64,000 nucleotides of DNA from Candidatus Bathyarchaeota archaeon. Its GTDB lineage: Archaea; Thermoproteota; Bathyarchaeia; Bathyarchaeales; Bathycorpusculaceae. The notes below the pieces were generated by a model. That model was not told the DNA's origin, ran no database searches, and saw only the letters and a list, made by a program, of their open reading frames with translations. Below, piece by piece: positions 10,247 to 60,808 of the stretch; the first letter of the stretch is position 1; each line of letters starts with the position of its first letter. The translations under genes were made by a program, and so were the position numbers. The DNA lies in assembly GCA_963772455.1 (NCBI GenBank), contig CAVYXJ010000012.1:96001-160000 (forward strand). Reading direction: 5' to 3'.

Positions 10247-10266
10247 AAATCCTATAAACAATATTC

Positions 10267-16385: not shown

Positions 16386-16579
16386 CCCAGGTTTAATTTT
16401 TTTAAACCTCATTATTCTTTAATCAAATATTTTTTTTCTTTTATTGTATTTAGGTTTTGTTCAGTTTGTACGTTTTTAGTTAGTTAGCCAAAATCAGTAC
16501 TGCAATGTCGCAAGACTTAATAAACTCACGAGCTTAAATTAACGAAGTGTACACACGAAATACAACTCGGGGATAACGA

Positions 16580-41295: not shown

Positions 41296-42106
41296 TTAAA
41301 ATAAATCAGGTTCAGATTCCTTTGAAGGTTCTTGAGAAACTTTAGGTTGTACTAGTTTCTTCAAAGTTTTGTGGCATTTGCTGCATTCAAACATCTCATT
41401 GCCGCATGACGGACAGAATATTTCTTGCTTTATCATGCGATCTAAAAGCTCGAGCAATTCTGCTTTATTCTTTACCTCGCGTGGAGATTCTTCCCGCACA
41501 AAATCATTAGCCGCCTTTTCTGGTTGTGGGTTTTCATTGGTGACTATTTCTTGATATACCTTTGAGATGCTGGTTTTTCCTTCCCTTAGCTTTTGTTTTT
41601 CATCTTCACTAGCTTTTTCCATTATTTTTTTACCGCGTTCAAGGGTTCGGGTAGAAACACCTGCTTTTTTGGCCACAATATCAGTTGCTTTTGCCTTTAA
41701 CTCAGGCGTAGCGTCATCTGACGCTATCCCCAATTGCATATCTCGACCATCTTTGCCTCCTTTGGATTGTCTTGACTTTGCAAGAGCTTTTTCAATTTCA
41801 AGCAGAGGAACAGCTAATTCAACAAGCTGGAAGTTGTTGAGGTGGCGACGTCTTAGGTTTGCTTCAATAACGAATTTCTTTTCATGAAGTTTGTCATCGA
41901 ATTTGCGAACTTCAAAATCTGGTTCGATACCAAGTGCCATACAAGCTCGAAAGCGGTGGTGTCCATCTAAAACTTCTAGGTCTTCATTAACGATTATTGG
42001 GTAGTGTTGGCCTTCGGTTTGTATTGAAGCTTTGAGTTCCTGCGAATTCTTCATCGGACATTCTTGGAAGTAGTTTGTCGTATTCGGGGTTTAAACGTAA
42101 ACTCAT
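41296..42106 (-). CDS. ParB/Srx N-domain protein with HTH and C-terminal Zn ribbon (frameshift near 42043)
   Basis: MSLRLNPEY..LLP.MS.EEF then LKASI..EG...PIIV....VLDGHHRFRA, NL.RRHL, AKKAGVS.RT, CPSC..CSKC. Confidence 0.85.
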
Positions 42107-42370
42107 GGATACCGCCTTCTTCTTTGTTTGAATTATTATTTAAGGTGAAGGGTCAAAGAAGTGTGCCAAAGTTGAAATTTTTAAATAAACAACAACTTCT
42201 TGCTTGTTGACTTTGCTTGAAGCAATCTTTGCGCCAAATAATATATTTGAGAGAAGAAGAAGAGAAAAAAATTTGCATTCTTCTTCTCTTCTACAAAAAT
42301 TTAGTTCATACCCTTTTACAACTGGGGATATTGCGGTGTCTTATTACGCTTTTCAGTTAGAAAAGGTGCC

Positions 42371-42395
42371 TTTTCGTCAAACTTTCTTTACTAAG
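42371..42395. repeat. Palindromic site overlapping the stop of 42391..43377; direct-repeat partner of 43430..43454
   Basis: TTTTCGTCAAACTTTCTTTACTAAG, 21/25 identical to TTTTCGTCAAGGTTTCTGGACTAAG. Confidence 0.75.
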
Positions 42396-43377
42396 TTGTG
42401 TTTGTGTGTTTTTTGTGGTAGACCAACAAACCAGCAGCCACTACAATTATTGTTATAACTGAAATAATTGCAACAGTCACGGTTAGAAATGGCTGTATTA
42501 TGCTAAAGTAGATTGTTTTTGAAGCAACCCTATTTCCGTAAGTGTCATTGGCGTAGATTGTAAGGTTATGTTCTCCAAGAGGGAGTCCGGAAATAGTTGT
42601 ATTTCCAGTTAGAGTTGTGTTTAGTTGCTGGTCAATGCTGTAGCCTAGCCAAGTAGCAGGGTTATCGACATTGAAAGTTAATTGAACATTAGAGTTAGTA
42701 TATGTTTTATTCAGCGGAGATAGAATACTGATTTTGGGTGGAACTGCTATAGTAAAATTGATTGTTTGTGAAGCGCCAATGTTTCCCAACGGGTCATTAG
42801 CGTAGACTAATACATTATGTAAACCATTTGTTAATTCAGTTATAGTTCTGTTTCCAGTTACGGTGACGTTTTGTTTCCCATCAAGGCTATAAGCCGTCCA
42901 ATTAGAAGTTTTGTCTGTTGAGAATACTAAGGGCACGCTTGATTCATTGTAAGTTTGATTTTGTGGCGACGATAACGTTATTTTTGGTGCAATTGATTGG
43001 AAAACGGCTTGCACGGTGCATCTATAACCGAAACTTGTACTGTAGGGATAACCGACTGCAATAGTTGCGGGATTATCATAAAGTGTAGTGGTTTTGGTTG
43101 CGTTTGAGATTCTCCAATATAGAAATTCAAAACCTCTATCAGGGGACGCTGTTAACTGAACATGAACTTCATAAACATAATCGACAAGAATAATCTGGTT
43201 TCCAGCAGGAGGATCTGTTTTTCCGCCTGTTGAGGTTAAAACCGTAAGTATAGCAGATGGTTCCATCTGTTCCATCTGTGCTTTTACAATATTAAGATTC
43301 ATTGCACCGAGTATAAGGGTTGATGCTATTAGAATCAAAACTGAAACCTGCAAGTGCCTCTTAGATTTTAGCAACAA
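42391..43377 (-). CDS. Surface protein with repeated Ig-like domains and C-terminal TM anchor
   Basis: Signal peptide; twice P.I..LSP.N.TY....V.L.F......W..YS.D...N.T..GN.TI..L..G.H....YAND..GN; TM helix then HKKH. Confidence 0.88.
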   Translation of the reverse strand: MLLKSKRHLQVSVLILIASTLILGAMNLNIVKAQMEQMEPSAILTVLTSTGGKTDPPAGNQIILVDYVYEVHVQLTASPDRGFEFLYWRISNATKTTTLYDNPATIAVGYPYSTSFGYRCTVQAVFQSIAPKITLSSPQNQTYNESSVPLVFSTDKTSNWTAYSLDGKQNVTVTGNRTITELTNGLHNVLVYANDPLGNIGASQTINFTIAVPPKISILSPLNKTYTNSNVQLTFNVDNPATWLGYSIDQQLNTTLTGNTTISGLPLGEHNLTIYANDTYGNRVASKTIYFSIIQPFLTVTVAIISVITIIVVAAGLLVYHKKHTNTT

Positions 43378-43420
43378 TCTTCTAACCTTGCTTGTCAGAT
43401 TAATCTTTTAAATTTAGGCG

Positions 43421-43486
43421 ATAAAAGGGTTTTCGTCAAGGTTTCTGGACTAAGCACAGATTTTTTAGTTAAGTTATCATGACTAA
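43421..43486 (-). promoter_or_regulatory. Two 9-4-9 palindromic sites plus BRE/TATA, copy 3
   Basis: Minus strand: TTAGTCATG-ataa-CTTAACTAA ... TTAGTCCAG-aaac-CTTGACGAA-AACCCTTTTAT. Confidence 0.75.
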
Positions 43487-43671
43487 TAATTTAGATTCCC
43501 AAGCCTTGAATATGTGTCGTTTTTCAAGCTTTTTGTCGGTAGAACCTTTTTTATGGGCGTGGTTTACTGCAGTCTCTTTCCTCTGAAAACCTGCCCTCAC
43601 TAAAGAACTAAGATGAACTTGATTTATCCCAAAATGATTTTTCCTGTTAATTTTTCTTGGAGGTGATTTGT

Positions 43672-43959
43672 TTGGTTGATGAGATAGAGGTATCTGAGAA
43701 TAAGGAAGCCCTGATTGTTTTGGCTGGTTCAGTTGCGGGCGCTGCCACTACGTTTATTGCTTCTTTGCCACTTCCGCTGGAGATTAAGGCTCCGGCAGCT
43801 GCGTTAGCATCCACTGTGACTGGTGCGATTCTGCTTTACTGGAAGAACAAAGTCAACAAAAGCAATAAGCATCCACACTCTTCTTTCTTTGGGGAATTTG
43901 GGCTTTCTTTTCAGAATACGTCTTTTTTCCATAATCAATCCTTTATAAAGTCTAAATAA
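43672..43959 (+). CDS. Small two-TM protein (3' end possibly extended by an indel)
   Basis: GGAGGTGA SD before TTG; two hydrophobic helices then a basic tail. Confidence 0.55.
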   Translation: MVDEIEVSENKEALIVLAGSVAGAATTFIASLPLPLEIKAPAAALASTVTGAILLYWKNKVNKSNKHPHSSFFGEFGLSFQNTSFFHNQSFIKSK

Positions 43960-45084
43960 CCAAGATACGCTTCTGGAGTTACTGCCCAAAACCCAAATTC
44001 AAACGGATCGTTCATATCGTAAATTATTAAGCCAATAAGGGCAATAGCGATAGATATTAGGGTCATAGCTAATGTTGAAAGGAATTGGTTTTCGAATGGA
44101 ACTATGTACATTCCTGAAACAATTCCAAAAGATAGAACTATCAGTAGAGCCCATAGTATTTTTGGGACTTTTGCAGCAAAGAGAGATTGTATGTTTGCTT
44201 TCTGTTCGGATGCTTTTCTTAATTCATCATTAAGGTTGGTAAAAATCTCTATGTCCTTTGGGTTGCTGAGGTCAAAATCTTTGATAGAACCAAAAAGGTT
44301 GTCGAATTTTGATTCTAAGTAATCCATTTGCTTTGTTTGTTTCCAATAAACATCGATAACAGTGCTGGCATAACTTGAAAGGTTCTTTCTTAAGGCTTCA
44401 ATTAAGACTGGAACCCTCAATTCCAGTCCCAAAAGGTAAATGTTTCTCAGACCTGTTGTTTCCTTCTTTGTAGCATTAATTAATGCCATGTACTTATTCC
44501 AAACGTTAGCTATCATAAAACCTGTTATTATGGCATAGATTGTTCCAACTACTCCAATGAACATTGAGAGCAAGTTTTGATCTCTTTGCAAGAGCAGCGT
44601 TCGGGGTGCAAAAAAGGATGCTGAGAATCCAAGCCCTATTATCGTTGCAGTAATTGCATATGTCTTGAAGTTAATTCGTCTCCACGAAATTTTTGCTCTT
44701 CCTGAAGCTGCTGCTAATCGGGTTAGCCTTGAAAGCCTGATTGCGCTAACTATGCTGAGGGCTCTTAAAGCTGGTGCTGTAGCAAACAACTCTGATATTG
44801 GTTCAAGAATTGGTGAAAGAATAATTATCAGACTTATTGCTGTAAAGAGCTTGTTTGTTTTAATAAAATCTCGTTTATTTTTAGCACCTAAACCTTAAGT
44901 ATGAACTCAGCAAAGAACAGAGAATAAATTATCCAAGATAAGGCAGAAAAAACCAGGTTCTGGGTGGCGGTTAAATCAAAAAGATATTCACCGACTACGA
45001 TTGGAATAATCAGTAGAGCTAAAAAAACCATCAACGTATCAGAAAAAATGAGTATACTGAAGACCTTAGTTCGTCTCTATTCAC
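43935..45084 (-). CDS. Voltage-sensor-like domain fused to DUF4239/bestrophin-like domain (two T-run frameshifts)
   Basis: Reconstructed S1-S4 including FFAEFILK and RALSIVSAIRLSRLTRL; then GTIYAIITGFMIANVW, E...L, and LIIYDMNDPF. Confidence 0.7.
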
Positions 45085-45453
45085 AAGAGCAACTATTAGC
45101 TTTTGAAGAAATTAACTTTTTGGGAGAGTTAGCTCGACACAGTATGTACTATGAATCGAATAGGTCTTTAGTGCGCTATCTTGACCCGAAAGTAAGTTTT
45201 GAAGAAGCGCGGGCTAACGAGCCTTCATTTCTCAAGATAAATTTTCAATTTAGAGACAAACCAGCGCGCAGGGATAATGGAAAATGCTAAAAGGATAACT
45301 TGCTAAACCCCAATCGGGAAAACTGTAAGCAACAAAGTTGAGTATTGCTTGATTATTAAAAAGAAGTACCTTAACTTGATTCTATATGGATTGAGGTGGT
45401 GATTGTGGTTACACAGTCACAAAGCGTTAAGTGGCTATGGTTAGTGGATTAAA

Positions 45454-45651
45454 TGGTGAATAAACAAATGAGGTTTTGGCAATACAAAAAAAGTAGTTTA
45501 GCTAGTTTGCTTTCGTATGCTATTATAGCAATAATATCACGCGCATGCTACGAGTCAGTTATGCAAGTGGCGAATAAACAAATGAGTATTTGGCATAATA
45601 AAAAAGGTGGTTTAGCTGGATGGCTCTGGTATGCTATTATAGTGGTAGTAT
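45454..45651 (+). repeat. Imperfect tandem duplication (114-bp period) of a small-peptide gene start
   Basis: GAATAAACAAATGAG...TTTGGCA...AAAAA...TTTAGCT...GTATGCTATTATAG occurs twice. Confidence 0.85.
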
Positions 45652-45701
45652 TGATAATAGTTCTAATTCTTGCTCTGAGATTTCTTTTTGGCATAATATA
45701 A
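45582..45701 (+). CDS. 39-aa hydrophobic peptide with class III-like signal (KKG)
   Basis: MSIWHNKKGGLAGWLWYAIIVVVLIIVLILALRFLFGII; intact second copy of the repeat. Confidence 0.55.
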   Translation: MSIWHNKKGGLAGWLWYAIIVVVLIIVLILALRFLFGII

Positions 45702-46228
45702 GGCAAACTTGAAAAGCAGGAAGAAAGAGCTAAAGGTTTTTTTTACTATTCTCCCTGTCTTAACAGTTGGTTTGTGCGGTTAATTCGCCCGCGCGCACTC
45801 CTTTTTTTAATCTTTTATTTTTTTGGCTTAGCGGCAGCTTTGCCTGCTTTTTTATTATAATCTGGTTCTATAGTTGCAGAGATGTCAAAGTTTTTCGCTC
45901 TAAGTCGCCATCTGTAAGCAGATCCTCTTGGGAATAAGGATGGGAAAGATATTTTATAGTCAGTTTGTCTTCATCGCCTGCACCAACGCCTACCGTTCCA
46001 GAGTTATCATTGTTAATAGTTGCACCTTTGATAGTTGGGACGGTATCTATTGTTGTGATAATTAGGCATCGAAAATGCGCTTTATTTAGTAAGTAGACTT
46101 TTTTCCAAGTCATTGGGGCGTCGCTGATTATTCTCGGCTCCGGTTTCATTATAGTGCTTTCTGCTTTTGTAAATCAAAAAAATAAGTTTACGTTATTGCA
46201 GTCACAGTAAGATATCGAAAAAACCCTA

Positions 46229-46999
46229 TCAGCGAGTAGTAGAGATAATCCTAAGCAGTGTAATCCTTTGAAAGCGACCTGCTCCTCCTCCACCTGAGCC
46301 CCCTCCACCGAAGCCTCCTCCTCCACCACCACTACGTCCACCTGAGTAACCACCGCGGTAGCCTCCTCCTCCGCGCGTGCGTCCTGCAACTAATGCAATA
46401 ATTACGATCACTGCAATGACTACAAAGATTATGAGATCTGTGTCGAATTGTTCATTGTAGTCTTCTGTTGCAATAGCTGATGTTCCAATTGCTGTTTCAG
46501 CAATGGCTTTAACTCCGTCTATTGCCGCTCCAGAATAGTCTCCTTCTCTGAGCGCTGGCATAACGTAGTTGTCAAGGATGCGTCCACTTCGTCCATCTGT
46601 AAGGTTTCCTTCAAGTCCGTAACCAACTTCTATACCGCTGTGTGGTTTACCGTCTGAACCTGCAACTACAAGTACAAGAAGGACACCGTTGTCTTTTTCT
46701 TTGTCTCCTATTCCTTTAACTCCGCTTAGTGATTCATCATTGAATATTTTGTTTCTTGCAACTGATGTGTCAGAGCCTCCTCCGTAGCTATCCAAGTTTG
46801 TAAGTGTGACTACAACTATTTCTGCTGTTGAGTTACTGTCAACTACTTCACAGTAGTTGTTGATTATTGTCTCAGTTTGGGCATCAAGAATGTTTGCCCT
46901 GTCGTAGACATATGTTAGTCTAAGAGCTTGAACTTGAGCAATTGATGCTGATGCTACTAAAAGTAAAAAAATAGTGAGGATTAAGAGGTTCTTATTCAT
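46229..46999 (-). CDS. TPM-domain protein with Gly-rich tail
   Basis: VYDRANIL, AEIVVVT, G..EKDNGVLL, IEVGYGLEG.LTD, GGGGGFGGGGSGGGGA. Confidence 0.92.
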   Translation of the reverse strand: MNKNLLILTIFLLLVASASIAQVQALRLTYVYDRANILDAQTETIINNYCEVVDSNSTAEIVVVTLTNLDSYGGGSDTSVARNKIFNDESLSGVKGIGDKEKDNGVLLVLVVAGSDGKPHSGIEVGYGLEGNLTDGRSGRILDNYVMPALREGDYSGAAIDGVKAIAETAIGTSAIATEDYNEQFDTDLIIFVVIAVIVIIALVAGRTRGGGGYRGGYSGGRSGGGGGGFGGGGSGGGGAGRFQRITLLRIISTTR

Positions 47000-47583
47000 T
47001 AGAAGTCCACAACTGGTGGATTCTCGATTCCTTCATTGCCTTGGTAATACTCTTTTTTGGTATGTCCAAACATGCTACCTGGGAACGTTTGTACTGCTCT
47101 GTTGTAGTCTCCGATTGCTTCAATGTAGTTACCTCTCGCAACCGTAATACGATTTTGTGTTCCTGCAAGTTCATCCATTAATGTCTGGACAACTGTGACT
47201 GATTTCAGTTCAGGATAGCTTTCCATGGTTGCTAAGAACTGTCCTGTTGCTATGTTGAGGTTAACTCCTGCTGTATCTTGATTAAGTTCGGACTGTGCAA
47301 GTGAGTTTAGCCAAGCCGTTCTTGCGTTTGTAACGTTGGTTAAAACTCCTGCTTCAAATGTCATGTAGCCTTTTGCTGTTTCAACTAAATTTGGAATCAA
47401 GTCTGCTTGTCTCTGGTATTGGTTGCGCACTTCAGACCATTTCTGGTCTACTGTCACACCGAGACTGATGATGTTGTTGTTAATGGCAATAATGACTCCT
47501 GCAATGACTGCAATGATTGCAACAACTAAAATGACAATAATTAGTGCACCTATTCCTTTTTTGTTCTTTCTCAAGTTTTTCAT
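46999..47583 (-). CDS. lemA: LemA family protein
   Basis: W..V..QYQR.ADLIPNL, E.YPELKS, EL..T.NRI..AR..Y....YN.....FP. Confidence 0.93.
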   Translation of the reverse strand: MKNLRKNKKGIGALIIVILVVAIIAVIAGVIIAINNNIISLGVTVDQKWSEVRNQYQRQADLIPNLVETAKGYMTFEAGVLTNVTNARTAWLNSLAQSELNQDTAGVNLNIATGQFLATMESYPELKSVTVVQTLMDELAGTQNRITVARGNYIEAIGDYNRAVQTFPGSMFGHTKKEYYQGNEGIENPPVVDF

Positions 47584-47979
47584 CTAAATTCTTCCTTTTA
47601 TGTTGCTTGTGATTAATGCAACTGTGATTCTTCAGCACATACTAATGCATTGTTCTTGCTGTTTAGCGCGCTGTTTTGTCCATGAATCATTTTATAGGGA
47701 TTCTTGGAGCAGATTACTTACATTGTTTTGTGTTGTTAAGTTGAATGGATAAGAATCAAGAGGGTTGTACTTAAGATTTTTTCGTTATTTGCCATGAGTT
47801 CTTTTTTTTAATTTTGGGAATAGATTCGCGCTATCAAATACTTTGCAAACAATGTTCGTGCGCTAAAAATTACCTTCTATGTTTTGTTCGATTAACATAA
47901 AATGATGGCTGAACAAGATTTAAGACTGCAGGGTAAACTTTACATTATTGTTCCTTCTAATTTTAGGTAGGTGAAACAA

Positions 47980-48207
47980 ATGTCAGTTCCTTTCTATATG
48001 ATTCTTCGAACAGAGCCTAAAAGGTCTCAGTATGTTGCTTGTGAAACGCTTAAAATTGAAGGCGTTAAAGTTTCACATTCAGTTAAGGGAAATTATGATG
48101 TAATTCTCTATGCAGAAGGAAAAGACTTTGAGGATTTAAAACGTATCAGGTTGGCTGTGGAGAAAATTAAATTTTTAAAAGAAACTGAAACACTGATGCA
48201 TGCTTAA
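47980..48207 (+). CDS. Stand-alone Lrp/AsnC ligand-binding domain protein
   Basis: IEGVK.SH.V.G.YDVI and ETETL; AGGTGA SD. Confidence 0.82.
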   Translation: MSVPFYMILRTEPKRSQYVACETLKIEGVKVSHSVKGNYDVILYAEGKDFEDLKRIRLAVEKIKFLKETETLMHA

Positions 48208-48674
48208 TTTTTGCATAAAAATCAATCGTGTTACTGCATTTCGTCTTCTTTCAAGGGGTCTCTATGTTGTCTACGGTCACGCTCAGTATCACATACGCTA
48301 CGTGGAGCATGTTTTCCGGATATAATGTAATTCTGCTCTACAACATTAGGCGATTTCATGTTGTTTGTTGGATGAAGTTTGCTGAGATTTTTTATAACCA
48401 TTTTTAGAAGCACCTTTCTTTTTTTCTTTTAAATCAATTATAACAGTGTGATATGTGGTAGAATTAAACTTTCCCATCCATCACTCAATTTAAAATAATT
48501 ATTTCAAAAAGCAACATTTTTCATAGTAAACAATTACATTTTTTGTCATCTACTTTGAACCTTCGGACTTCTCTTAAGGAAAAAGACAATTGGCGGGGGT
48601 TAATAGTTCACTATCACTTTGATAGTTCAAAACATCTAAAAAATTTTGCCAACTTTTTCTTCAATTGAGTTGAT

Positions 48675-49451
48675 CTAGCGCAAATGACCAATTACTCTAG
48701 CTGGCTTATTCACTTGGCGCATTAGGTGTAAAACATTGCTTTCAGAAAGGCTCGCTAAAGCTACTGTTGCTGGACCTGCAGACTTGTTCACGTCCACCTC
48801 CTGCTGTTTAGCAATTGTGTAATTCAGCCTAGAACCCTGGGCGAGTGTCTTAAGCTCATGTGCTATCCCCGTTGATCCCACAGGAATCACTTCATGAACA
48901 TAGGTCAATTCTCTGATCTTCAGGATATCCGTTGAATCTACTATGTTTCTCGCCTTCTCGGCTCGAAGAACTTCGTTCCCAACTGAGGGGTTACCAATAG
49001 CTACAACAACGTCACCTGGAAGAGAGGTGCCAATTTTCAGTTTCACTCTACTGCAAGTTCCAATAACAGTGACACCGATACCTGTCTGCTCTACAATTAT
49101 GTTTTTTTCTGTGCTACCTGTCACTGCAAGTTTAGGATCCAAGCCTGCTTTTTTGGCTTCAGATCTAATTCCACGGAGAATAGCTGCACCAATCGGATTA
49201 GGCGCTACACCCAAAGCATCTACAATGCAGATTGGCATAGCGTTGACAGAGAGGACTTCCATGAGGGCTGTTCTGGCTGTAAATTTTCCGAGAGTGAAAC
49301 CACTAACCTTGATTTTGTCAAGAGGATTTGGTCCTATGCCACCAGCGGAGTCGCAACCGATGACAAGGATTTCATCGTGTGCTAACTGAAAAAGAAGGAC
49401 ATCCCTGTTAGTTTTTATTTGAGAAAGGACTGAGAAGGAGTTTTTGGTCAA
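48675..49451 (-). CDS. cblS: Alpha-ribazole kinase-like protein (AIR synthase fold)
   Basis: RD...........CDS.GGIG....D, R.ALME, GSTE.N....QTG.GVT, PVGS.GI..E, KSAGPAT; downstream of cblT-like gene. Confidence 0.75.
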   Translation of the reverse strand: MTKNSFSVLSQIKTNRDVLLFQLAHDEILVIGCDSAGGIGPNPLDKIKVSGFTLGKFTARTALMEVLSVNAMPICIVDALGVAPNPIGAAILRGIRSEAKKAGLDPKLAVTGSTEKNIIVEQTGIGVTVIGTCSRVKLKIGTSLPGDVVVAIGNPSVGNEVLRAEKARNIVDSTDILKIRELTYVHEVIPVGSTGIAHELKTLAQGSRLNYTIAKQQEVDVNKSAGPATVALASLSESNVLHLMRQVNKPARVIGHLR

Positions 49452-49993
49452 GTCTTCAGTTTCCTTCTAACGGCAAGATAGATGATGCCTGCGACAACAG
49501 CATTTAACGTTGCTGCAACCACTAGAAACGGTGCGTAGCCGAATGCGATTAGCCAGCCAACGTTTATGTCCTCAGCTAACCAAGGTACGAGAGGAAAAAC
49601 TAAAGCAGTGTTAATTGCAACACCTGAAACAAGTGCAGGTATAACTCCCAACGACTTATGCGTTTTGTTTAACAAGCCAATTGCCGCCGCCGCTAAAGCC
49701 ATGCCGATGGCTATTGGAATATGCAGTATACCCAAAGGAAAACCACTTGTTGCGGCTGTCGCTAAGTGTCCTATCCCGCTTACAAGGGCACCTTCGGCGG
49801 GTCCAAAGAGCAATGCGACAAAGAAACCTGGAAATGAGTCAAAGGCAAGGCTTCCAACTGGGCTTGGGATCTTAATAAGTGAGCCAACTACACTAAGAGC
49901 TGAGAATATGGCTAATCGTGCGGTCCGAATAGCGGGGGAAGTTTTGAGTATTGATGCCGTTTGGGTTTCTGGATTTGTTGGTTTGGGTATCAT
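49448..49993 (-). CDS. cblT: ECF transporter S component, alpha-ribazole transporter-like
   Basis: ALS.VG..IKIPSP.GS.AFDS.PGF, GHL.TA..SGFPL...H..IA..M. Confidence 0.75.
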   Translation of the reverse strand: MIPKPTNPETQTASILKTSPAIRTARLAIFSALSVVGSLIKIPSPVGSLAFDSFPGFFVALLFGPAEGALVSGIGHLATAATSGFPLGILHIPIAIGMALAAAAIGLLNKTHKSLGVIPALVSGVAINTALVFPLVPWLAEDINVGWLIAFGYAPFLVVAATLNAVVAGIIYLAVRRKLKT

Positions 49994-50385
49994 TATTTCA
50001 CCTTTTTAGTTTTAATTGAAAATGAATGGGATAAAAGCATTTTCGTGTGTATTACATATGTAGTGTGGCATTTTTTTGTTATAGTAGTTTTGTTTTTTGT
50101 TTGTCTTCGTTGTATTGATTGGGTTGTTGGTTGTTAGTTGCGTTAATTTATTTGTTTGTTTTTGGGTCTTGTTGTTTTTTGGGTGTTGTTTATCGGTAGA
50201 ATCTTTTTTATGGGCAAGCTGGGCTGCTGCTCTCTTCATACATGAAAATTGAATCCTGAATCCTAATATTAAGGTCTTTCTTGCGACATTTCTTCTATCA
50301 AGGCTTCAACTTTGCTGAAGAAAGCTAAATGTTAACAGAAAAAGTTATATCTTCTAAGAATTAGACATTAAAAGGGATTTTTTAA

Positions 50386-50970
50386 ATGAATAAAAAAACA
50401 TTAGCTATTATTGCAGTTGTTGTTGTAGTGATTGCAGTTGTGGCGGTTGGGGTTTACTTGGCTACTCAAGGCGGTTCAGGAGATAATTCGCCAAACACAA
50501 GTCCCACACCTACTGTAACACCAACACCCACAGGTACTAGCACTGCTACACCCACACCTACACCAAGTGGCACTGGAGGCAACATTGCAGAAGCAACAAG
50601 TTTGAAGTACAGCGTAAGCGTCACCGAAGGAGGACAAACACAAGGATACACCTACCAAGCTAAAAACCCCGGATCAGCCAACATAATGCTGCGAATAGAT
50701 TTCACAGACTCTTCAGGTGAGAAAACCATTTACGTTATAAATGGGGTGGAAAATAAGGCATGGACATTCTCTAATGGTGCCTGGGAAGACGTTTCTGCTG
50801 CATACCAAACACAATTCACCATATGGAATTCACTGTATCAAGGATACGTAAATAACCTCTCAACTTGGACTGGCGGAGACTGGACCTACACCGCGGAAGG
50901 CGCAACAGTAAGAATCTACGATATCAGTGTTAATCCATCAATACCAGATTCGGTCTTCCAACCTACCTAA
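50386..50970 (+). CDS. N-anchored secreted protein with PT linker
   Basis: N-terminal TM helix, TP repeats, beta-rich domain ending PDSVF.P. Confidence 0.8.
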   Translation: MNKKTLAIIAVVVVVIAVVAVGVYLATQGGSGDNSPNTSPTPTVTPTPTGTSTATPTPTPSGTGGNIAEATSLKYSVSVTEGGQTQGYTYQAKNPGSANIMLRIDFTDSSGEKTIYVINGVENKAWTFSNGAWEDVSAAYQTQFTIWNSLYQGYVNNLSTWTGGDWTYTAEGATVRIYDISVNPSIPDSVFQPT

Positions 50971-51080
50971 AACAAAACTCGAAAACAAAACAAAGCCTCA
51001 CTTTTTTTACTCCAATTGTCATCTGAATCTAACCCTTATTTTATTGATTAAAAAAGCAGTAAGAAACTTTAAAGCTCTGG

Positions 51081-51428
51081 CTACAATTCGGGCAAGTATA
51101 AGTGTTTACTTTTCCTGTAAATAAGGATAAATCCAATCAGAATAAGCAAAGCTGGCACTATGTAGAAAGCTGTGTAGGAAAGATACCAACCTATCCATGG
51201 CCAAACACTGTAGGTTGCCCCTAACAAATCCAGTTCCCTGATTGAATACAGGGTTAAAGTGGGCACCGATAACCATCCAATTGTAAGAAATATAAAGCCT
51301 ATACTGATTGCCAAGTACCCATTCTCTTTTGTTCTCCGAAAATGTAGAATCAAAACACCGCAAATCAGTACAAATATAATGACAGGAAGGAAATAACGGA
51401 ATAAATCAAGCAGTTGAAGTTCCCACAT
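51081..51428 (-). CDS. Three-TM membrane protein
   Basis: Hydrophobic helices. Confidence 0.6.
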   Translation of the reverse strand: MWELQLLDLFRYFLPVIIFVLICGVLILHFRRTKENGYLAISIGFIFLTIGWLSVPTLTLYSIRELDLLGATYSVWPWIGWYLSYTAFYIVPALLILIGFILIYRKSKHLYLPEL

Positions 51429-51634
51429 CGGCTTTCACTAATTTGCATTTCAAATGTTCACATATAATAATTTTTTAACAGTTGTTTCCTTGCCTTGTTT
51501 ATAGTGGTTGCAAGACAGAGCTCTTGCTTGCGAGGGCGACTTTTAGGGAGGGGTACTCGCTGCCTGGTTTTTTGTTGTCTTTATTGATTTACTTGTTTTT
51601 TCTTTGTTGTTTTCTTTTCGTTATTCTGTTTTAA

Positions 51635-51733
51635 GTGTTTTGGCATGGATTTCTTGCAGTTTTTGCAGCTGGAGGCCTTATTGCCGGTTTAGCATTAACG
51701 TACTTTGCTGTAAAAAAGCTAAAACGACGGTAG
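51635..51733 (+). CDS. 32-aa single-TM peptide or gene remnant
   Basis: GTG start: MFWHGFLAVFAAGGLIAGLALTYFAVKKLKRR. Confidence 0.4.
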   Translation: MFWHGFLAVFAAGGLIAGLALTYFAVKKLKRR

Positions 51734-51976
51734 GTTTTGTTCTGTATTTTTGTACTCTAAAATTTTGTTAAATTGAGAGACATTCGTTTTGGGCTAAAAA
51801 GACAACTATTATAATGCAATTAATAGCGATAGCAAAACTTCCATAGCTCATATACTCAGGTCACCTATGCATTCCAATGGTTATCTCTTAAGTTAAGTTT
51901 AGCTATTCTATGATTAGAAAAATGAAAAAGTTCAAAAAGTTAAAGATAAATTGGGGTTTGTTGATGTCTTTTACTT

Positions 51977-52330
51977 TCATTGTTCCTGAAGTGGTTTTTT
52001 GTTCAATGTTTTTTGCATAGCCTCGGCAACGATGAATAAGCCAACTAGCACGATCACTGTTGGAATGAATGGCATTGCAAATCCAACTATTCCGGCACCG
52101 CTTAATGATAGGGCAAGTAGGCCTATGAAGAGACTGAATTTGCTTACGCTGATTCCTGTGGTCCATCTGGCAAAGTTTAGAACTATCAATATCAAGCCAG
52201 CTCCAAGTGCAATGTAAATTCCAGTGTCAATTTGGTAGTAAGTGGATGTTATCCATCCAGCGCCAAGTAGGACAATGAATACTCCCCATGCTATTGGATC
52301 AAAGATTTTGTTTTTTGCTGATTTTTCCAT
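51977..52330 (-). CDS. Four-TM membrane protein
   Basis: GAGGTGA SD; WG...L.G and G.GLILI.LN..R pattern. Confidence 0.75.
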   Translation of the reverse strand: MEKSAKNKIFDPIAWGVFIVLLGAGWITSTYYQIDTGIYIALGAGLILIVLNFARWTTGISVSKFSLFIGLLALSLSGAGIVGFAMPFIPTVIVLVGLFIVAEAMQKTLNKKPLQEQ

Positions 52331-52372
52331 TCTTTTTCACCTCCTCATCATTATATTTTTTTTTAATTTTTA

Positions 52373-52618
52373 TCAAGTGCATCCGCAGGAGTTCTTGGAT
52401 TCTCCGTCGGCGTCAATTTCTGCTATGCCTGAGGCAAATCTGTCTATTTGAGTTATGGCGTTTTTTCGAACGACTTTTGCAACTCCGATTGCTTCTGCGA
52501 TTTCTTTTTTGTCGGCTCCGCTGTCGAGGGCTTTTTTGATTATGGTTCTAAGGCATGGTTGGCAGTTTGCGACTACGGCTGCTCCGACTGCTATTAGCAA
52601 TTTTGTTTTGGTTTCCAT
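52373..52618 (-). CDS. Carboxymuconolactone decarboxylase/AhpD-like protein
   Basis: LIAVGAAV.ANC.PCL....KA...GA...EI.EAI. Confidence 0.88.
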   Translation of the reverse strand: METKTKLLIAVGAAVVANCQPCLRTIIKKALDSGADKKEIAEAIGVAKVVRKNAITQIDRFASGIAEIDADGESKNSCGCT

Positions 52619-52716
52619 CTTATTCCTCTGTTAGTTTTCTTCTACTTCCTTTTATGGTGGAGAAAACTATATAACAATTCTCTGACAACTCCTTACCAGA
52701 AGAGAGGAGAAAAACT

Positions 52717-53472
52717 ATGACTATCTCGAAAACCACTTCCAGAGACAGAATGATAGCGCAATTAAAGGAATTGGAACTTTCAACGTACGAAGCCACAGTT
52801 TACGCTGCATTAATCACTCACCCGTCAATGACTGCGAGCGCACTCTGCAAAGAAACAGGCATCCCAGACACAAAAATTTACTACGCGTTAGAGGGACTGA
52901 GCGAAAAAGGAATGCTTACAGTCCGAATAGGCAATCCAAAGATCTACCGTCCTGTACCTCCGAAAGAGGCAATTGCTAACCTTAAACAACGGTTAACAGA
53001 GAGGCTAAATGAGAAACTAAAAGAAGCAGATGTCCTAGTCGACATGATATCGCCCATATTTGAAAGCGCAGAAAAACCCGATGAGTTAGAAGTTGCATAC
53101 ATCATCCGGGGACAAAACAACCTCATAAACCGTATGAAAGCATTAATTGAAACAGCACATAGAGAAGTCACTTTGTTTGTTTCCTATCCAACCCTTTTCC
53201 AAGACCTTAAAATGTCACTTCAGCAAGCACAAGAAAAGCGCAGAATCAAACTTAACATAGCTATGACTGAAGAAATGTTAAAGACTGAAGACTTCAAGGG
53301 TTTAGGTGATGTGCGTCAGCTTTGCTGTCCTGTTACGCTTCTTATCTCAGATCTGAAGACTTTGATAACGGTCTCTGACTGGGTTGAGGAATCTGCTATG
53401 CTTTCGCAAGACCAGAACCTGATTCGAGTAGCAAGAGACTACTATGAAAATTCGATGTGCTATGCTCCTTAG
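52717..53472 (+). CDS. TrmB family transcription regulator
   Basis: LS.YEA.VY.AL, GIP..KIY..L..L..KG, P..Y.P..P. Confidence 0.9.
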   Translation: MTISKTTSRDRMIAQLKELELSTYEATVYAALITHPSMTASALCKETGIPDTKIYYALEGLSEKGMLTVRIGNPKIYRPVPPKEAIANLKQRLTERLNEKLKEADVLVDMISPIFESAEKPDELEVAYIIRGQNNLINRMKALIETAHREVTLFVSYPTLFQDLKMSLQQAQEKRRIKLNIAMTEEMLKTEDFKGLGDVRQLCCPVTLLISDLKTLITVSDWVEESAMLSQDQNLIRVARDYYENSMCYAP

Positions 53473-53564
53473 AAAACGATTGTGAAGCATGTTTCTTTTC
53501 AGTTGCTGTTAATGCTATATTGCATTAATTTTATATATGTAGAGTTACAAACTTAGCAAAACGT

Positions 53565-54020
53565 ATGTTGTCAAATAAAGAATTGGTTCAAAAAGCAGTC
53601 AATGACTTCCAAAGTGGATTCAATTGTACTCAAAGCATACTCCTAACGTTATATGGAAATATGCTGCCAGAGGGAAAAAGCGATCTGATTCCAAAAATAG
53701 CCAGTGGGTTTGGGGGCGGCATGGGACTCTGTGGATCGGTTTGCGGGTCGTTAACTGGAACTATTATGGCGATTGGAATCAAATATGGTTCTAACGAAAA
53801 AGGTGAGGAAAAAAACATGCCAGCTTATGCCAAGGCTAACGCGCTTTATCGGTTGTTTGAAAAGCAACATGGCACTGTTCTTTGTCGTGAGCTAATCAAA
53901 TATGACCTTACCAAGCCTGAAGAGTTGGAAAAGGCAAGACAAGAAGGCGTTTTTAATAGAGTATGCACAAATTTGGTCAGAACTGCTGTGGAAAATTATC
54001 TTGAATTGGAAAATAAATAG
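53565..54020 (+). CDS. C_GCAxxG_C_C family redox protein
   Basis: FNCTQS, GFGGG....SVCG.LTG, CREL and C-terminal Cys. Confidence 0.88.
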   Translation: MLSNKELVQKAVNDFQSGFNCTQSILLTLYGNMLPEGKSDLIPKIASGFGGGMGLCGSVCGSLTGTIMAIGIKYGSNEKGEEKNMPAYAKANALYRLFEKQHGTVLCRELIKYDLTKPEELEKARQEGVFNRVCTNLVRTAVENYLELENK

Positions 54021-54119
54021 CTTTGAGATTTGCATTATAATAGAGGGGCTGGGAGTTAATTTTTAATGTGCGCATATTATTAATATTGTAACAGCCTAAC
54101 CTTACTGGTGTGAGCACCT

Positions 54120-54449
54120 TTGCTCTTTGGACATAAAAACAGATTCCAAGTAGACTTTGGCGATTTACAAAACGAAAAAGAAGGCTTATCAAACTTTTTG
54201 CAATCAAACCTCAAAGTATCCGTTGCCTCAGATGAAAACAAATTGATTGTGAATTCAGAAAAGTTGTCTGTGCTGGAATTGCAGCAAGCAGTGGCAAAAT
54301 ATGTTTATCGCCATAACTTGAGCAGGACTCACTGGGTCTCTGTGCAAGATAAAACCGTTAAAATCAATAGGTTCAAAGGCGCTAAGAAAAAAGAAAAACC
54401 CAAGAAAAGCACACCTCATCAAAACGTTACACAAAGCTGGGGACTATAA
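54120..54449 (+). CDS. Hypothetical protein, possible ribosomal eL22-like fold
   Basis: F.VD, L.NFL, ..V.SE..S...L....KY.....L pattern; basic tail. Confidence 0.5.
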   Translation: MLFGHKNRFQVDFGDLQNEKEGLSNFLQSNLKVSVASDENKLIVNSEKLSVLELQQAVAKYVYRHNLSRTHWVSVQDKTVKINRFKGAKKKEKPKKSTPHQNVTQSWGL

Positions 54450-54473
54450 AATGCATCGTTAAGTAAGCAAAGA

Positions 54474-55025
54474 TTATTTGTGGTTTGTCGGTGGCTTTTC
54501 GCTTAATTCAAGGAACTTTTCCATTGAGTATTCTACGATTTCCCGAGCCACTTGAGCATCTTTCCATTCTCTAACCTTAACCCATTTATGGGGCTCAAGT
54601 CGTTTGTAAGTTTCAAAGAATTCTTGAATCTCTATTAATCGGTGTTTGTTGACATCGGTTATGTCATGGTAGCCTTCGAATCGAACATCGTTAACCAGTA
54701 CGGATAGAATTTTGGCGTCTAGCCCTTCTTCATCTTCGATTATTAGGGCACCTATAACTCGGACTTTAACAATGCAACCGACTGTAAGAGGTGCGTAGCT
54801 GAGTAGCATAATATCTAAGGGGTCCTCATCATCAGACCATGTCTGTGGAACAAACCCGTACTCAACTGGAAACACCACTGATGAAGGAATAATTCTATCC
54901 AGTATGAAGGCTTCCCATTTTATGCCGTATTCGTATTTATCTCGCGAGCCACTTGCAACTTCAATAACCATATTTAAAAGCCCAGGTGGATTATCTCCCG
55001 CTGGGATATCTCTCCAAAAATTCAT
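54474..55025 (-). CDS. ppa: Family I inorganic pyrophosphatase
   Basis: KYEY, LDR, YGFVPQT..DD.DPLD, D.KI, FFETYK.LE. Confidence 0.95.
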   Translation of the reverse strand: MNFWRDIPAGDNPPGLLNMVIEVASGSRDKYEYGIKWEAFILDRIIPSSVVFPVEYGFVPQTWSDDEDPLDIMLLSYAPLTVGCIVKVRVIGALIIEDEEGLDAKILSVLVNDVRFEGYHDITDVNKHRLIEIQEFFETYKRLEPHKWVKVREWKDAQVAREIVEYSMEKFLELSEKPPTNHK

Positions 55026-55296
55026 AACTTGTCAACCTTTTATTAGGCAACGCTGTCAACGATTTAAATTTTCGCCGATTTTCTTTAACTTTAATGGTGA
55101 TCTCAAAGAATAAAGGAAGTTAAGATTACTAAAAATATTTTTCAATTAGACAATGCCGTCAATTAATCGTGAGATAAGAGAACTCTTGAATAGAGGGTGA
55201 TGGGGATGTTGTTGGATTAACTGTTGGTTGGTTGGATTGAATTTTAATCCTTCACCTGTCCACCTTAATCTTATATGCTAAGCAGTCAATAATAAA

Positions 55297-55848
55297 TTGG
55301 CGACAAAATTGCTTAAATCAAAAGCAATAAGCAAGAAGCACATTATTGCCGTTATCTCAATTGCAATTGTTCTTGCAACAATCTTATCTGTTTTTGCAAT
55401 TGAACAACTTGCAAGCCAAGGTCAAGTTACAAATCAAAACAACATCTTACAACCAGATGCATTAAGTCCTTTAAATGAGACTCCTGCAGCTACCGAGGAA
55501 CCTACACCAACTCCGACACCCTCGGCTATTCCGACGCCAACGCCTATACCCATTCCAGTTGATTTCACAATTAACGATTCCTCTCACATACTCACTGTCA
55601 ATATTGACTTGAACGATGGAATGAATAGGGAAGAAGCTATAGTGGTAGCCCAGCAACTGTTTTCTTACGCACATTCACATTCTACTTATGAGCTTAAATC
55701 AGCAGAAGTTAATGAAGCAGGGGTTTGGAGTGTTAGTCTTCCATGGGGAATAGTTTGGGCTGATGGCACTCAAGAGAGCCACAGTCACTTCTTTATCGCC
55801 ACAATAGACCCAACGACTCTAACCGTCGAATACGCCACATGCGAATGA
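55297..55848 (+). CDS. Membrane-anchored protein with PT linker and PepSY-like domain
   Basis: TM helix, PT repeats, REEAI..A, W.V, IDP.T. Confidence 0.7.
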   Translation: MATKLLKSKAISKKHIIAVISIAIVLATILSVFAIEQLASQGQVTNQNNILQPDALSPLNETPAATEEPTPTPTPSAIPTPTPIPIPVDFTINDSSHILTVNIDLNDGMNREEAIVVAQQLFSYAHSHSTYELKSAEVNEAGVWSVSLPWGIVWADGTQESHSHFFIATIDPTTLTVEYATCE

Positions 55849-55916
55849 GATTAAACGTACCCTTCACCAAGTAAATTAGCCTTCACTTGTCCACTAAATT
55901 ATTTTTCACAAAAAAA

Positions 55917-56066
55917 TTATTCTGTTTTATTTTTAGATTCCAATTTATTATTCGAAGGTACTTTGTTTTCTGGTATTAGAGCATCTGGATTCTTAGCTTT
56001 TCTTTTCAAATAAGCCGCATACTGTTCAGGCGTAAAGTCTTTCCTAAACTCATGGTCTTTACCCAA
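55917..56066 (-). CDS. 49-aa hypothetical protein (not in the ORF track)
   Basis: AGGTGA SD, TTG start: MGKDHEFRKDFTPEQYAAYLKRKAKNPDALIPENK... Confidence 0.5.
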   Translation of the reverse strand: MGKDHEFRKDFTPEQYAAYLKRKAKNPDALIPENKVPSNNKLESKNKTE

Positions 56067-56256
56067 ATTTTTTCACCTATTTCTATTCGCTAATTTTTCA
56101 GGGAGATGATGGATTAAATTTTAATTTAGCCTGCGAAGTTACGGGTTTACGAAATTTCAGTTTAACCCTAACTAATTAAGAATAAGTTGTAAGAACATAA
56201 ATGACCTTCGGGATTCCAGCCCCATTTGTGAGATTCACCAAGGTAATGTTATTTGC

Positions 56257-59200
56257 CTAAGAAACGATTTGATAATTTTCTTTTCCATTCTTGTTAAGTT
56301 TAGGAATAGACATTACAAATTTTACTCCTTTGCCTGGTTCTCCCTCTTCAGTTATGTTCCAACCGTAGATATCTATCATTTTTTTGGTCAGGAATAATCC
56401 AAAGCCCGTGCTGCCACCAGTGCTAAATCCCTCAGAGAAAAGCTTCAACTTATTCTCCGCTGAGATGCCTACACCGTCATCTTCATAAGTCAACATCAAG
56501 TTGCCCTGGTCAGTTTTTTTGTAGTGTACTTTTATTGTGGTGGTTTTTTGTCCATATTTTCTTGTGTTATCAATAAAATTGTAGAACATTTGCCTCAGAA
56601 AAGAATCAGCCAACACTATTAATCCATGGCATTCATTTTTTATCTTTGGACATGAACCCGAGAAGAGCGTGGCTGCTTCGTTTAGCTTTGCCTCAACATT
56701 CATGTAGGATAATTCTTCTGCTCCTAGTTGTTCGTACATTTTTGCGAAATCAAAGATTCTAACAGTTTCCTTAACGGCTTGCTCCATCTTGTTAAGTCCC
56801 TCAACAACATCTGCTTGGTCGAGATGCTTTTTCTTTAGCATATAGGCATATCCTGTAATTGTTGAAAGTTTATTGCGAACATCATGTCTAGTTAAACTGC
56901 CAACGACGCTCAACTTTTCGTTAACCAAAACCAACTGATCCATTGTCTGGTCCAATTTTTCTTCAGCTTTTTTGCGGTCAGTGACATCTTGAATGGTTGT
57001 TCGCAGAAAACTCTTTGTCCCAATCTTAAATTTTGATACATTCAAAATAACGTCTACAACAATGTTGTTTTTGTCTTTAAAACGAGTAAAGAATTCAGAG
57101 ACAATACCGTCTCGTTTGAGGGCTTCAAGCAGCGTTTTTCTATCTTGAGGGTTTTCATATAGATTAACAGAAGAAGTCTTGTTCAACTCTTCAAAAGAGT
57201 AGCCAGTAAGGGTTTGCATAGCCCTGTTCGCATCAACTATGGATCCTTCTAAGGTTGTTATGGCAACAGGGAGGGGCGCTTGTTCAAAGAGCGATCGATA
57301 ACGCTCTTCACTCTCCTGCAATTCCAGTTTAGTTTTCTTCTGTTCAGTAATATCTGTATTGTAACCGCTCCAAAGAATGCTGCCGTCTTCTAATCTTTCT
57401 GGAGTAGACTGCCCCCACATCCAACGTATTTCTTGACCTGGAAGTTGTACACGATATTCACACCGCCAAACAGTCATGTTTGCTGCAGAATACTCAATGG
57501 AACGAACAACTAGGTCTAAATCTTCTGAGACTATTGCTTTGGCAATTGGGGAAAAATCGTTTTGAACATCTTGTGGAGAACAACCAAAAATGTGGTTTAT
57601 TCCATCAGATGTTAATGGAACACAGTATGTTCCGTTTGGTCGTTTCAAAAATTGAAAAAGCATTCCTGGAGTTTGAGAGGCAAGTTTTGTAAATCGAAAG
57701 TCTTTTTCTCGTAACGCATCTTCATTTTTCTTACGTTCTGAGACGTCTTGAACCATTGAAAGGACACCAATTACTGTGCCGTCTTCTTTTTTGAGTGGAG
57801 TGTTTGACCATTCGCATAAGATGGTCCGGCCGTTTTTAGTTAAATTTTCGTTAGCACTATTTGCAGTTACGTCCCCTTTGATTAATCTACTCCAAATCCC
57901 GTCAACTTGGGGTTGGGCTTGTTTTGGTACAATCAAGTCGTAGGGATGTTTTCCGACTGCTTCTTGTTGCGTGAAACCAAATATTCTCTCGGCTGAAGGA
58001 TTCCATGTTTTAACGCGAAACTCACTGTCCCAAACAATTAATCCAACAGGCATCCGATCAATTTGCAATTGGAGATATTCTTGGAGCTTGCTGACTTGGT
58101 CTTTATTTTGTCTGCAGGATTCTGTTGGTTTCTTTGTCTCTGTAATACTTCTTGAGATATGGGTTGCTTGAATTATTTTGCCTTCAACGTTTCTAATTGG
58201 GTACACCGAAACTTCAACTAATAATTCATTGTTATTTTTGTCAAAGTGTTTGTGTTCAACCTTGACTGGTTTACCGGTTTCTAGCATTTCATGAACAGGG
58301 CAAATATCATTCGGAGGTAGACAAGGAACGGATTTATGATGCGTCATTGCGTAGCATGTTTTCCCAGTCAATTCTACTTTACTAAAGCCTGTTTGTTTCA
58401 ATGCCGCAACATTGGCATCGACTATCCTGAAATCATTAACATCAATTACAAAAAGCACCTCACCTACCGAGTTAATTACGCTCTCACTAAACTCCTTCGA
58501 AAACTTCAAATCATCTTCGGCTTTTTTGCGTTCAGTTACATCTCTGACGAGAGCAATAACCAATTTTTCTTTATCAAAAGATATAGTGCTCAAAGTTACC
58601 TCTATTGGAAATCTGCTTTTGTCCTTACGTATTTGGGTACTCTGCAGATTGATAGTGTTCCCTGCAAGCACTTTAGACCATATGTCACCCACAAGTTTTT
58701 GATCTTCTGCCCTAACGGATATGTCTTTAATACTTCTTGCGAGCAGCTCTTCTCTTGTGTACTGTAAATTTTTGCATGCTTGCTGATTTACATCTAATAT
58801 TTTGCCTTTTTCATCGTGGATAAAAATTGCTTCGGCTGCCTGATTCATAAGCGTAAAATAACGTTTTTCACTCGCCTCTAAGGCTGATTTTGCTTTTGTT
58901 TTTTCTGTGATCAAGTTAATACCGTGTACGAGTTCTCCATAGACGGTTTCGGGTGAGCCTTGCTTGTGGAAGTAACCCTCTGCGCCCAGATTGAGCGCAG
59001 TTACAGCTACATCTTCTCTGCCTTTGCCAGTAAACAAAATAAATGGAACCATGTTTTTGCGTTTTCTAAGTTCCCGTAGAAAATCTAATCCGTTCTTCAT
59101 GGGCATATCATAATCAGAAACTACCAAATCATAGTGCCCATCTGCTAATTTGCCAAGACCCTCATCTACACAGCTAGCCTGATCGATCTCCAAGCTACCG

Positions 59201-59364: not shown

Positions 59365-59817
59365 ACAAATGTTGTAATTAATAATAAATCAATTATGAAT
59401 CCAAAATACTGAGCATTATATGCTAAAAATATAATGATGTGAAAAGGGATAGTCTTGATGAATATCACTACCTCTGATGCATCACAACTATTGCAGTGTA
59501 CCTGTCCCTCGAGAGAGTCGGATAATTTACCTATTCCCCCAAGTGGGACTTTGGTTTTAATATATTTCTCCACGGAAGTAAGGTTTAATTTCATTTAGTT
59601 TACCGAAGAAGAATGGGCTTCGGTAGATTAACAATGACTTCAGAATCACTCTCTGCACCTTTTAGTTTTCTAAGAAAATAAACCCGTCTTTTTGCTGGTT
59701 GAATTTTAATCCACCACCACCACTTCAACGTGAGGTAGCAGTTAGAACAAAGGAGGTATAAGCGTTCATACCTACATTGTTTAGCCCCAAACACGACTTA
59801 GACAAAAGGCATAGAGG

Positions 59818-59873
59818 TTAGTCAAGAAACTTTGTCCAGCTTAGATGAGGAATATGTACAAGAAGCCTTTTAT
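59818..59873 (+). promoter_or_regulatory. Tandem 9-4-9 site plus BRE/TATA, copy 4 (more degenerate)
   Basis: TTAGTCAAG-aaac-TTTGTCCAG-c-TTAGATGAG-gaat-ATGTACAAG-AAGCCTTTTAT before the ATG at 59898. Confidence 0.65.
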
Positions 59874-59897
59874 TGAAACTCTTTCTAAGATTCACTT

Positions 59898-60758: not shown

Positions 60759-60808
60759 AATCTAAATGAAAAGCTTGATAAACTTAACTTTATGCGTTTT
60801 TTACGAAT

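Follow-up and report, generated by a model that had tools for sequence, protein, structure and literature searches.

A pair of 25-bp direct repeats brackets a surface-protein gene in a 64-kb stretch of genomic DNA from a Candidatus Bathyarchaeota archaeon (contig CAVYXJ010000012.1, positions 96,001 to 160,000 of the forward strand; hereafter the window). On balance, both repeats are probably copies of one cis-regulatory promoter module of envelope genes, the upstream copy belonging to the promoter of the bracketed gene and the downstream copy lying as an orphan on its 3' end. Further copies of the same dyad occur upstream of this and other genes for secreted, membrane-anchored proteins, a pattern which we read as the signature of an operator common to a putative cell-envelope regulon. 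An earlier note on this DNA had taken the bracketed gene for a single integrated cassette. Its interpretation is partly supported overall; nothing found here, however, speaks for a mobile cassette of a new kind, and a false lead is removed.

The repeat pair

The repeats lie at 42371-42395 (TTTTCGTCAAACTTTCTTTACTAAG, forward-strand letters), the downstream copy relative to the gene, and at 43430-43454 (TTTTCGTCAAGGTTTCTGGACTAAG), the upstream copy. Their starts are 1059 bp apart, and they are identical at 21 of 25 positions in direct orientation, exactly as the earlier note had described; they thus differ from each other at 4 positions, while each differs at 6 or more from any other copy of the dyad considered below. 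With up to 3 mismatches allowed, a degenerate 25-mer pattern matched the 64 kb at these two sites only, and 100 shuffles gave no match. Direct 25-mer pairs of at least 21/25 identity within 2 kb numbered five in the window and none in each of 10 block-shuffled windows. The repeat pair is real and beyond chance. A separate 22/25 direct repeat was seen at 45451-45475 and 45565-45589, 114 bp apart, in and just before a small open reading frame (ORF; 45453..45701) to which no family is assigned.

When each repeat was read as two 9-nucleotide (nt) half-sites around a 4-nt spacer, self-complementarity reached 7/9 pairs in the upstream copy and 6/9 in the downstream copy, against a mean of 2.3/9 across the window, where 6 or more pairs occurred at 1.3% and 7 or more at 0.2% of positions. 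The description of each repeat as palindromic therefore stands as far as dyad symmetry above background is concerned, but the palindromes are imperfect. A TATA-like box and the complete ORF are both situated between the copies, and the TAG stop codon of the ORF falls inside the downstream copy, both as previously stated (Table 1).

A dyad common to four promoters

The repeats belong to a wider set of dyads with the consensus TTAGTCAAG-N4-CTTGACnAnAA, of which the window holds 8 copies. Besides the repeat pair, looser matching recovered 7143-7167, 7168-7192, 10266-10290, 10290-10314, 43463-43487 and 59817-59841. A weight matrix was trained on seven copies with 42371-42395 left out, and 20 shuffled windows served as controls. 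The downstream copy scored 22.8 bits with this matrix, whereas the shuffles did not exceed 16.0; all eight dyads scored between 22.8 and 32.5 bits, and the next independent match in the window reached 13.3 bits. Symmetry across the copies ranged from 4 to 7 of 9 pairs, again compared with the background mean of 2.3, and exact 9-nt half-sites were present at five places, all within the dyad promoters.

Seven of the eight dyads are located upstream of four genes, every one pointing toward its gene. In three of these promoters (genes starting at 7228, 10349 and 43377), reading of the sequence placed the proximal dyad 2 nt before a CTTTTA(T/A) box and 34-35 nt before the start codon, with a second dyad 24-33 bp further up. 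Side-by-side dyads are therefore found in three of the four promoters, as would be expected for cooperative dimers. The four genes encode a PQQ-propeller/PMT_2 glycosyltransferase, a product of 269 amino acids that has no Pfam family, the Ig-like protein of the bracketed gene and a Big_7 protein; in each of the four a signal peptide is combined with a C-terminal membrane anchor that ends in a basic tail. The dyad most likely binds a dimeric transcription factor, a prediction from the form and placement of the site. Possible candidates encoded in the window include a TrmB-type protein (52717..53472) and winged-helix proteins (16092..16975). The earlier note had considered the geometry of the repeats hard to explain by a transcription-factor site alone. 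As the same dyad occurs in gene-directed orientation in four promoters, however, such a site accounts for it well.

Archaeal operator dyads at the B recognition element and TATA box offer the closest known comparison, such as the TrmB-family glycolytic motif of Thermococcales and the ArnR boxes of Sulfolobus. They too are imperfect palindromes at a fixed place just upstream of the TATA box, serve functionally related genes and often occur as two adjacent sites. The present case differs from them in that one copy sits on a stop codon at the 3' end of a gene, and in that the site is predicted from sequence only. The dyad matches no described site that we know of, and among the literature matches listed on palindromic promoters and surface proteins Bathyarchaeia were not mentioned.

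The 3' end of the surface-protein gene

The product of the bracketed gene matched the Pfam families Big_13 and Ig_J, both below the cut-off, and has close homologs of 97, 89, 86, 85 and 83% identity, from which it departs in alignments at both ends. At the 5' end, the window has ACA (43393-43395) where the orthologs (MSKLTRLL...) have their Met codon; the only possible start is a TTG 18 nt downstream, so that TTG at 43377 is the likely start codon. At the 3' end, the protein terminates in TNTT-stop, compared with KHNSVKKV-stop in P0005 and KHNLVKEV-stop in P0006. Translation in the neighbouring frame, however, gave ...HKHNLVKKV-stop, a tail like those of P0005 and P0006, which places a frameshift relative to the orthologs near the end of the gene (Table 1). 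Gene 7228..9642 reads CACAAAAAACACAAA where the surface-protein gene reads CACAAAAAACACACAAA.

In the frame of the orthologs the gene would stop at a TGA in the right half-site of the downstream copy (42377-42379), and 19 of the 25 nt of the copy are coding. The copy thus holds a stop codon in either frame; the TAG is read only because of the frameshift, and its presence within the repeat partly reflects that shift. Two further shifts were noted in the window, an extra G at 42039/42040 that moves the frame of the parB-like gene by 1 nt, and a fumarase gene split in two (30012-30107) with an offset of 844 nt as against 843 in three relatives. Since these also occur in the window, the frameshift in the surface-protein gene may be an assembly error; the three together suggest assembly indel errors.

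The downstream copy as a probable promoter module

The likeness between the two copies does not end with the 25 nt. In a local alignment it runs on into CCTTTT (GACGAAAA-CC-CTTTT versus GACGAAAAGGCACCTTTT), and beyond the ortholog-frame stop CGAAAA matches at 6 of 6 positions in sequence that is non-coding. As the likeness continues past the stop into non-coding DNA, the downstream copy has the look of a whole promoter module. In the explanation favoured here, the upstream copy and the second dyad 33 bp further up would together serve as operator in the promoter of the surface-protein gene itself. The downstream copy would be an orphan module on the 3' end of the gene, which the ORF in ortholog frame would enter and in which it would stop at the right-half-site TGA, leaving a tail ...KHNLVKKV. 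The arrangement would represent a junction block of the order 'membrane anchor - basic tail - dyad - T-rich box', which presumably once linked a family gene to the next promoter, and the surface-protein gene would have been inherited or moved together with this block, with a tandem array as its probable origin. The downstream copy is probably vestigial because no gene follows it, and its partial preservation may be put down to its being coding sequence. The earlier note had itself raised the decayed promoter of a lost tandem paralog as an alternative to a cassette. Of its proposals this comes closest to the explanation preferred here, but no remnant of such a gene was detected.

Surface-protein multigene families with conserved 5' and 3' blocks provide a parallel, for they combine differing ectodomains with a near-identical anchor and tail, and all members have signal peptides. 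The window differs from them in that it contains no tandem array of such genes.

Homologs of the surface protein elsewhere bear on the 3' end. Tails of the form (N/T/G)(L/S)VK-x-x were present on 8 proteins among the 120 homologs listed, and a search with the last 50 residues of P0006 returned seven new proteins of which five were also tailed, giving a total of at least 13. These 13 cover at least five different ectodomain types, and five of them share AGLLVYHKKHKHNLVKEV exactly. The dyad variants of the window, translated in the frame of the tail, would yield LVKKP, LVKNS, LVKDS and LVK, each followed by a stop; P0118 does end in LVKNS, and the LVKKLLRK of the read-through tail of P0107 agrees with ...TTGACGAAAA. 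These matches suggest that the dyad is commonly carried on the 3' end of family genes, the members that share the tail being known as protein sequences and not as DNA. A near-identical C-terminal module, AGLLVYHKKHKHNLVK(E/K)V, was observed on the Bathyarchaeial surface proteins P0006, P0242, P0243, P0245, P0246 and others, whose ectodomains are unrelated. The sorting signals of the PEF-CTERM type are a related lead: the model TIGR03024 matched P0246 and P0248 at 14.1 and 14.5 bits, below its cut-off of 23, and did not match the window protein.

Several results weigh against a promoter module at the 3' end. The T-rich box of the downstream copy is displaced (a 5-nt gap and not 2), is degenerate (TTTTCT) and may be a hairpin arm. 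No remnant of a following gene was found, and there is no ORF in 42154-42365, nor anywhere in the 217 nt leading up to the parB promoter. Comparison of 42106-42365 with the gene's promoter and 5' end gave as its best local alignment ACAAGCAAG, the score of which was equalled by 216 of 500 shuffles, and this candidate relic of a second gene was rejected as evidence. Four of the seven orthologs with a complete C-terminus lack the dyad-coded tail, among them the 97%-identical P0002, so that the gene does not invariably carry the 3' copy. It could also be the protein, and not the DNA, on which selection acts to maintain the common tail. Finally, no dyad copy of 15 bits or more was detected in about 255 kb from 13 related loci, which hold none of the four target genes, and this comparison gave no evidence that the motif is conserved outside the present genome.

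Related genomes and the 19.4-kb segment

The relatives examined were 13 Bathyarchaeia loci found by means of the parB-like gene (63-90% identity), the window's own genome not being among them. The side comprising parB, an 858-amino-acid protein, a GTPase and a UPP synthase was syntenic in most of the 13. In ten loci dnaG adjoins parB, the spacer measuring 0.2-1.5 kb in nine of them but roughly 3.8 kb in L004; the remaining loci are L008, which stops at the contig edge, and L011 and L013, which have different neighbours. In the window, dnaG is found only at 61.6-62.9 kb. Nucleotide homology on the parB side stopped at window position 42153 in all ten loci, while homology on the dnaG side stopped at 61523-61617 in the nine loci where that side lay within the query, and none of the 19 window ORFs between 42391 and 60758 had a match in any of the 13 loci. 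Family-type tails were likewise looked for in these loci and not found. What the relatives lack is therefore a segment of 19.4 kb, with the surface-protein gene at one edge, and not a unit of 1.06 kb.

Both junctions of this segment, at 42153/42154 and at about 61590, are situated outside the motif. Between the nearer junction and the downstream copy lie 217 nt, an arrangement unlike the empty site at a single motif for which the earlier note had looked to related genomes. No direct or inverted repeats were found at the junctions, where the best matches were equalled by 188 and 172 of 200 shuffles. In a tree of five flanking proteins with 11 rows (L003, L011 and L013 having been dropped for more than 35% gaps), the window grouped with L001 as its sister (98/97), both falling within a clade that includes L004 and L012 (100/100), and from this placement the segment is a derived insertion or replacement. 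It could reflect a translocation, a recombination import or a mis-assembly. A Pfam scan of 67 ORFs across the window revealed no integrase, transposase, resolvase or site-specific recombinase; the sole recombination-type match was a Rad51-fold protein (5352..6080). The genes of the segment look ordinary and include those for bestrophin-like, TPM and LemA proteins, an ECF S-component, TrmB, a pyrophosphatase, a PAS histidine kinase and two motif-driven surface proteins.

At the far side of the segment, the dnaG frame is open from about 61720 (61720-62911), but contains none of the start codons ATG, GTG and TTG in frame before 62132. For the N-terminal part of dnaG, which is conserved (KYVVHARFEIEG...), no start codon is therefore obvious, apparently likewise in L001.

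Between the surface-protein gene and parB, a purine/pyrimidine hairpin with a T7 loop was observed at 42258-42292 (AGAAGAGAAGAAGAA ... TTCTCTTCTTCT), which may be a transcription terminator. A single terminator-like hairpin in the spacer region is within shuffle expectation. In five relatives the dnaG-parB spacer contains a hairpin element of about 110 nt (L002:9650-9765, L003:9650-9765, L006:9660-9770, L007:9660-9785, L010:9660-9770); L001 and L012 have a shortened form of this element, and in the window it could not be recognised as such. At Rfam gathering thresholds, the window and four loci gave only a tRNA, and the relatives' hairpin had no Rfam match. The best match to its covariance model in the window, non-significant at E = 0.19, was at 59771-59903, the dyad-bearing promoter region of gene 59898..60758. 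Orthology of the window spacer with the spacers of L001 and L012 was considered and rejected, as they show no likeness.

Table 1. Position, strand and character of the features discussed (window coordinates).
Feature	Position	Strand	Description
Two adjacent dyads	7143..7192	+	29.2 and 29.7 bits; upstream of 7228..9642 (PQQ propeller + PMT_2 glycosyltransferase, secreted, membrane-bound)
Two adjacent dyads	10266..10314	+	25.5 and 29.5 bits; upstream of 10349..11158 (signal peptide, C-terminal anchor)
parB-like gene with conserved core promoter	41296..42153	-	Promoter 42106-42153 (E = 9.9e-14); true ATG 42105; extra G 42039/42040
Segment absent between parB and dnaG in relatives	42154..61589	.	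19.4 kb; surface-protein gene at one edge
Non-coding stretch	42154..42355	-	Between downstream copy and parB promoter; no ORF; hairpin 42258-42292
Degenerate TATA-like box or 5' arm of small hairpin	42356..42370	-	GGCACCTTTTCTAAC; 5-nt gap, TTTTCT; pairs with CAGTTGTAAAAGG in the minimum-free-energy fold
Downstream copy	42371..42395	-	Gene-strand CTTAGTAAAGAAAGTTTGACGAAAA; 22.8 bits; 6/9 pairs; contains TAG 42391-42393 and TGA 42377-42379
Surface-protein ORF	42391..43377	-	328 amino acids; TTG start, signal peptide, Ig-like repeats, C-terminal membrane anchor, TAG stop
Frameshift relative to orthologs	42400..42408	-	Within CACACAAAC; window 2 nt extra or 1 nt short
TATA-like box	43417..43429	-	CCCTTTTATCGCC; about 30 nt upstream of the position of the orthologs' ATG
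Upstream copy, promoter-proximal dyad	43430..43454	-	Gene-strand CTTAGTCCAGAAACCTTGACGAAAA; 32.5 bits; 7/9 pairs; CTTTTAT after 2 nt
Distal dyad of surface-protein promoter	43463..43487	-	ATTAGTCATGATAACTTAACTAAAA; 25.2 bits; 7/9 pairs; absent from the earlier note
Single dyad	59817..59841	+	25.3 bits; upstream of 59898..60758, Ig-domain surface protein with 26% identity to the product of the enclosed gene

Alternative explanations

The downstream copy could instead be a working element, whether as operator, as roadblock or as promoter for a short non-coding transcript upstream of parB, and the counterpart of the hairpin element upstream of parB in the relatives. We consider this unlikely, though it deserves weight. 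Window positions 42355-42393 matched the L007 element at 31 of 39 positions, a score reached by none of 300 dinucleotide shuffles, and a profile built from the five relatives had its second-best match in the whole window exactly at the downstream copy. In the window TTGAC stands 275 nt from the parB ATG, which falls within the 266-277 nt measured for the five relatives, and the relatives' element is a conserved hairpin of 29 pairs, 3 of them compensatory, with a smaller hairpin possible at the matching place in the window. The profile match, however, had E = 1.5 over the whole window, the covariance model of the hairpin detected nothing at 42300-42400 up to E = 10, and the other six of the seven pairwise comparisons were non-significant. 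The fold of 42154-42395 was no better than that of shuffles (z = -1.47), and the nearest relatives, the sister L001 and L012, have a short spacer that is not alignable with the window. The tails of paralogs elsewhere show, moreover, that the module is not specific to parB. Alternatively, the downstream copy might have been kept only as code for the tail HKKHKHNLVK[KE]V, for example as a sorting or retention signal, in which case the promoter dyads would be fossils of duplicated gene ends, their likeness to the copy would stem from common descent, and the copy would not act as a regulatory site at the 3' end. The identical tail on at least five proteins with unrelated ectodomains, a conserved block that also takes in HKKHKH and the membrane segment ahead of the dyad, and the large coding share of the copy in the ortholog frame would all agree with this. 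We regard it as rather improbable, however, as the likeness to the promoter module goes on beyond the stop codon (CGAAAA, then CCTTTT) and the promoter dyads show palindromic symmetry, pairing and an exact spacing to the TATA box, none of which would be required of a fossil. No tail-coding remnant (HKKHKHN) precedes any of the seven promoter dyads, and the tail is lost by frameshift from the window protein as well as missing from the four orthologs mentioned above.

The reading of the two copies as recombination sites, through which the 1.06-kb unit would integrate and excise or be shuffled by way of dispersed dyads, seems to us very improbable. The copies are imperfect palindromes in direct orientation that bracket a promoter and a whole ORF, one of them overlapping the stop codon; they resemble each other more closely than any other copy; the protein tails suggest 3'-end dyads on many family genes; and the closest ortholog, P0002, has a different 3' end. 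By their symmetry, orientation and position they recall integron cassettes, where an attC site (about 57-141 bp), itself an imperfect palindrome, follows the ORF at its 3' end, in some cases over the stop codon, and such sites stand in direct orientation around one gene. Unlike in integrons, no integrase or other recombinase was found among the 67 ORFs scanned, the site comprises only 25 bp without further conserved flank, and the unit has its own promoter. In three promoters, furthermore, the same site precedes the TATA box with a gap of 2 nt, the dyads outside the repeat pair occupy such fixed promoter positions, and the genes that they drive have no copy at the 3' end. Relatives lack the far larger segment, with breakpoints outside the motif and no junction repeat, and most of the downstream copy codes for a C-terminal tail that is found on other family proteins. 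The claim of a single integrated cassette, as put forward in the earlier note, is thus not upheld, as no recombinase was found among the ORFs scanned, the dyads stand at promoter positions and the empty sites, in relatives none of which carries the gene, lack 19.4 kb. The explanation of the repeats as copies of one promoter module, with an orphan at the 3' end, remains the one we prefer.

Implications for Bathyarchaeia

A broader and rather speculative reading, to which we give little credence, would assign the dyad a double role, as operator and as code for the final residues with the stop codon (LVK-x-x-stop) of many Bathyarchaeial surface proteins. Every gene unit would then have the palindrome of about 25 bp both at its promoter and at its end, with recombination between dispersed copies duplicating, deleting or swapping whole units. 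If this were true, the double-role dyad would constitute a recombinase-free, cassette-like route to cell-surface variation, and the recently changed 3' end of the gene, seen against a 97%-identical ortholog with another tail, together with its position at the edge of the 19.4-kb segment, would be traces of such recombination.

Bathyarchaeia are abundant and almost entirely uncultured, and to our knowledge nothing is known about the control of their cell envelope. The sharply defined dyad in the promoters of a glycosyltransferase and of surface proteins offers a concrete handle for predicting the regulon across genomes and for searching for its regulator. That the dyad should overlap the C-terminal tails of numerous surface proteins is unusual, and it could bear on how these gene families expand.

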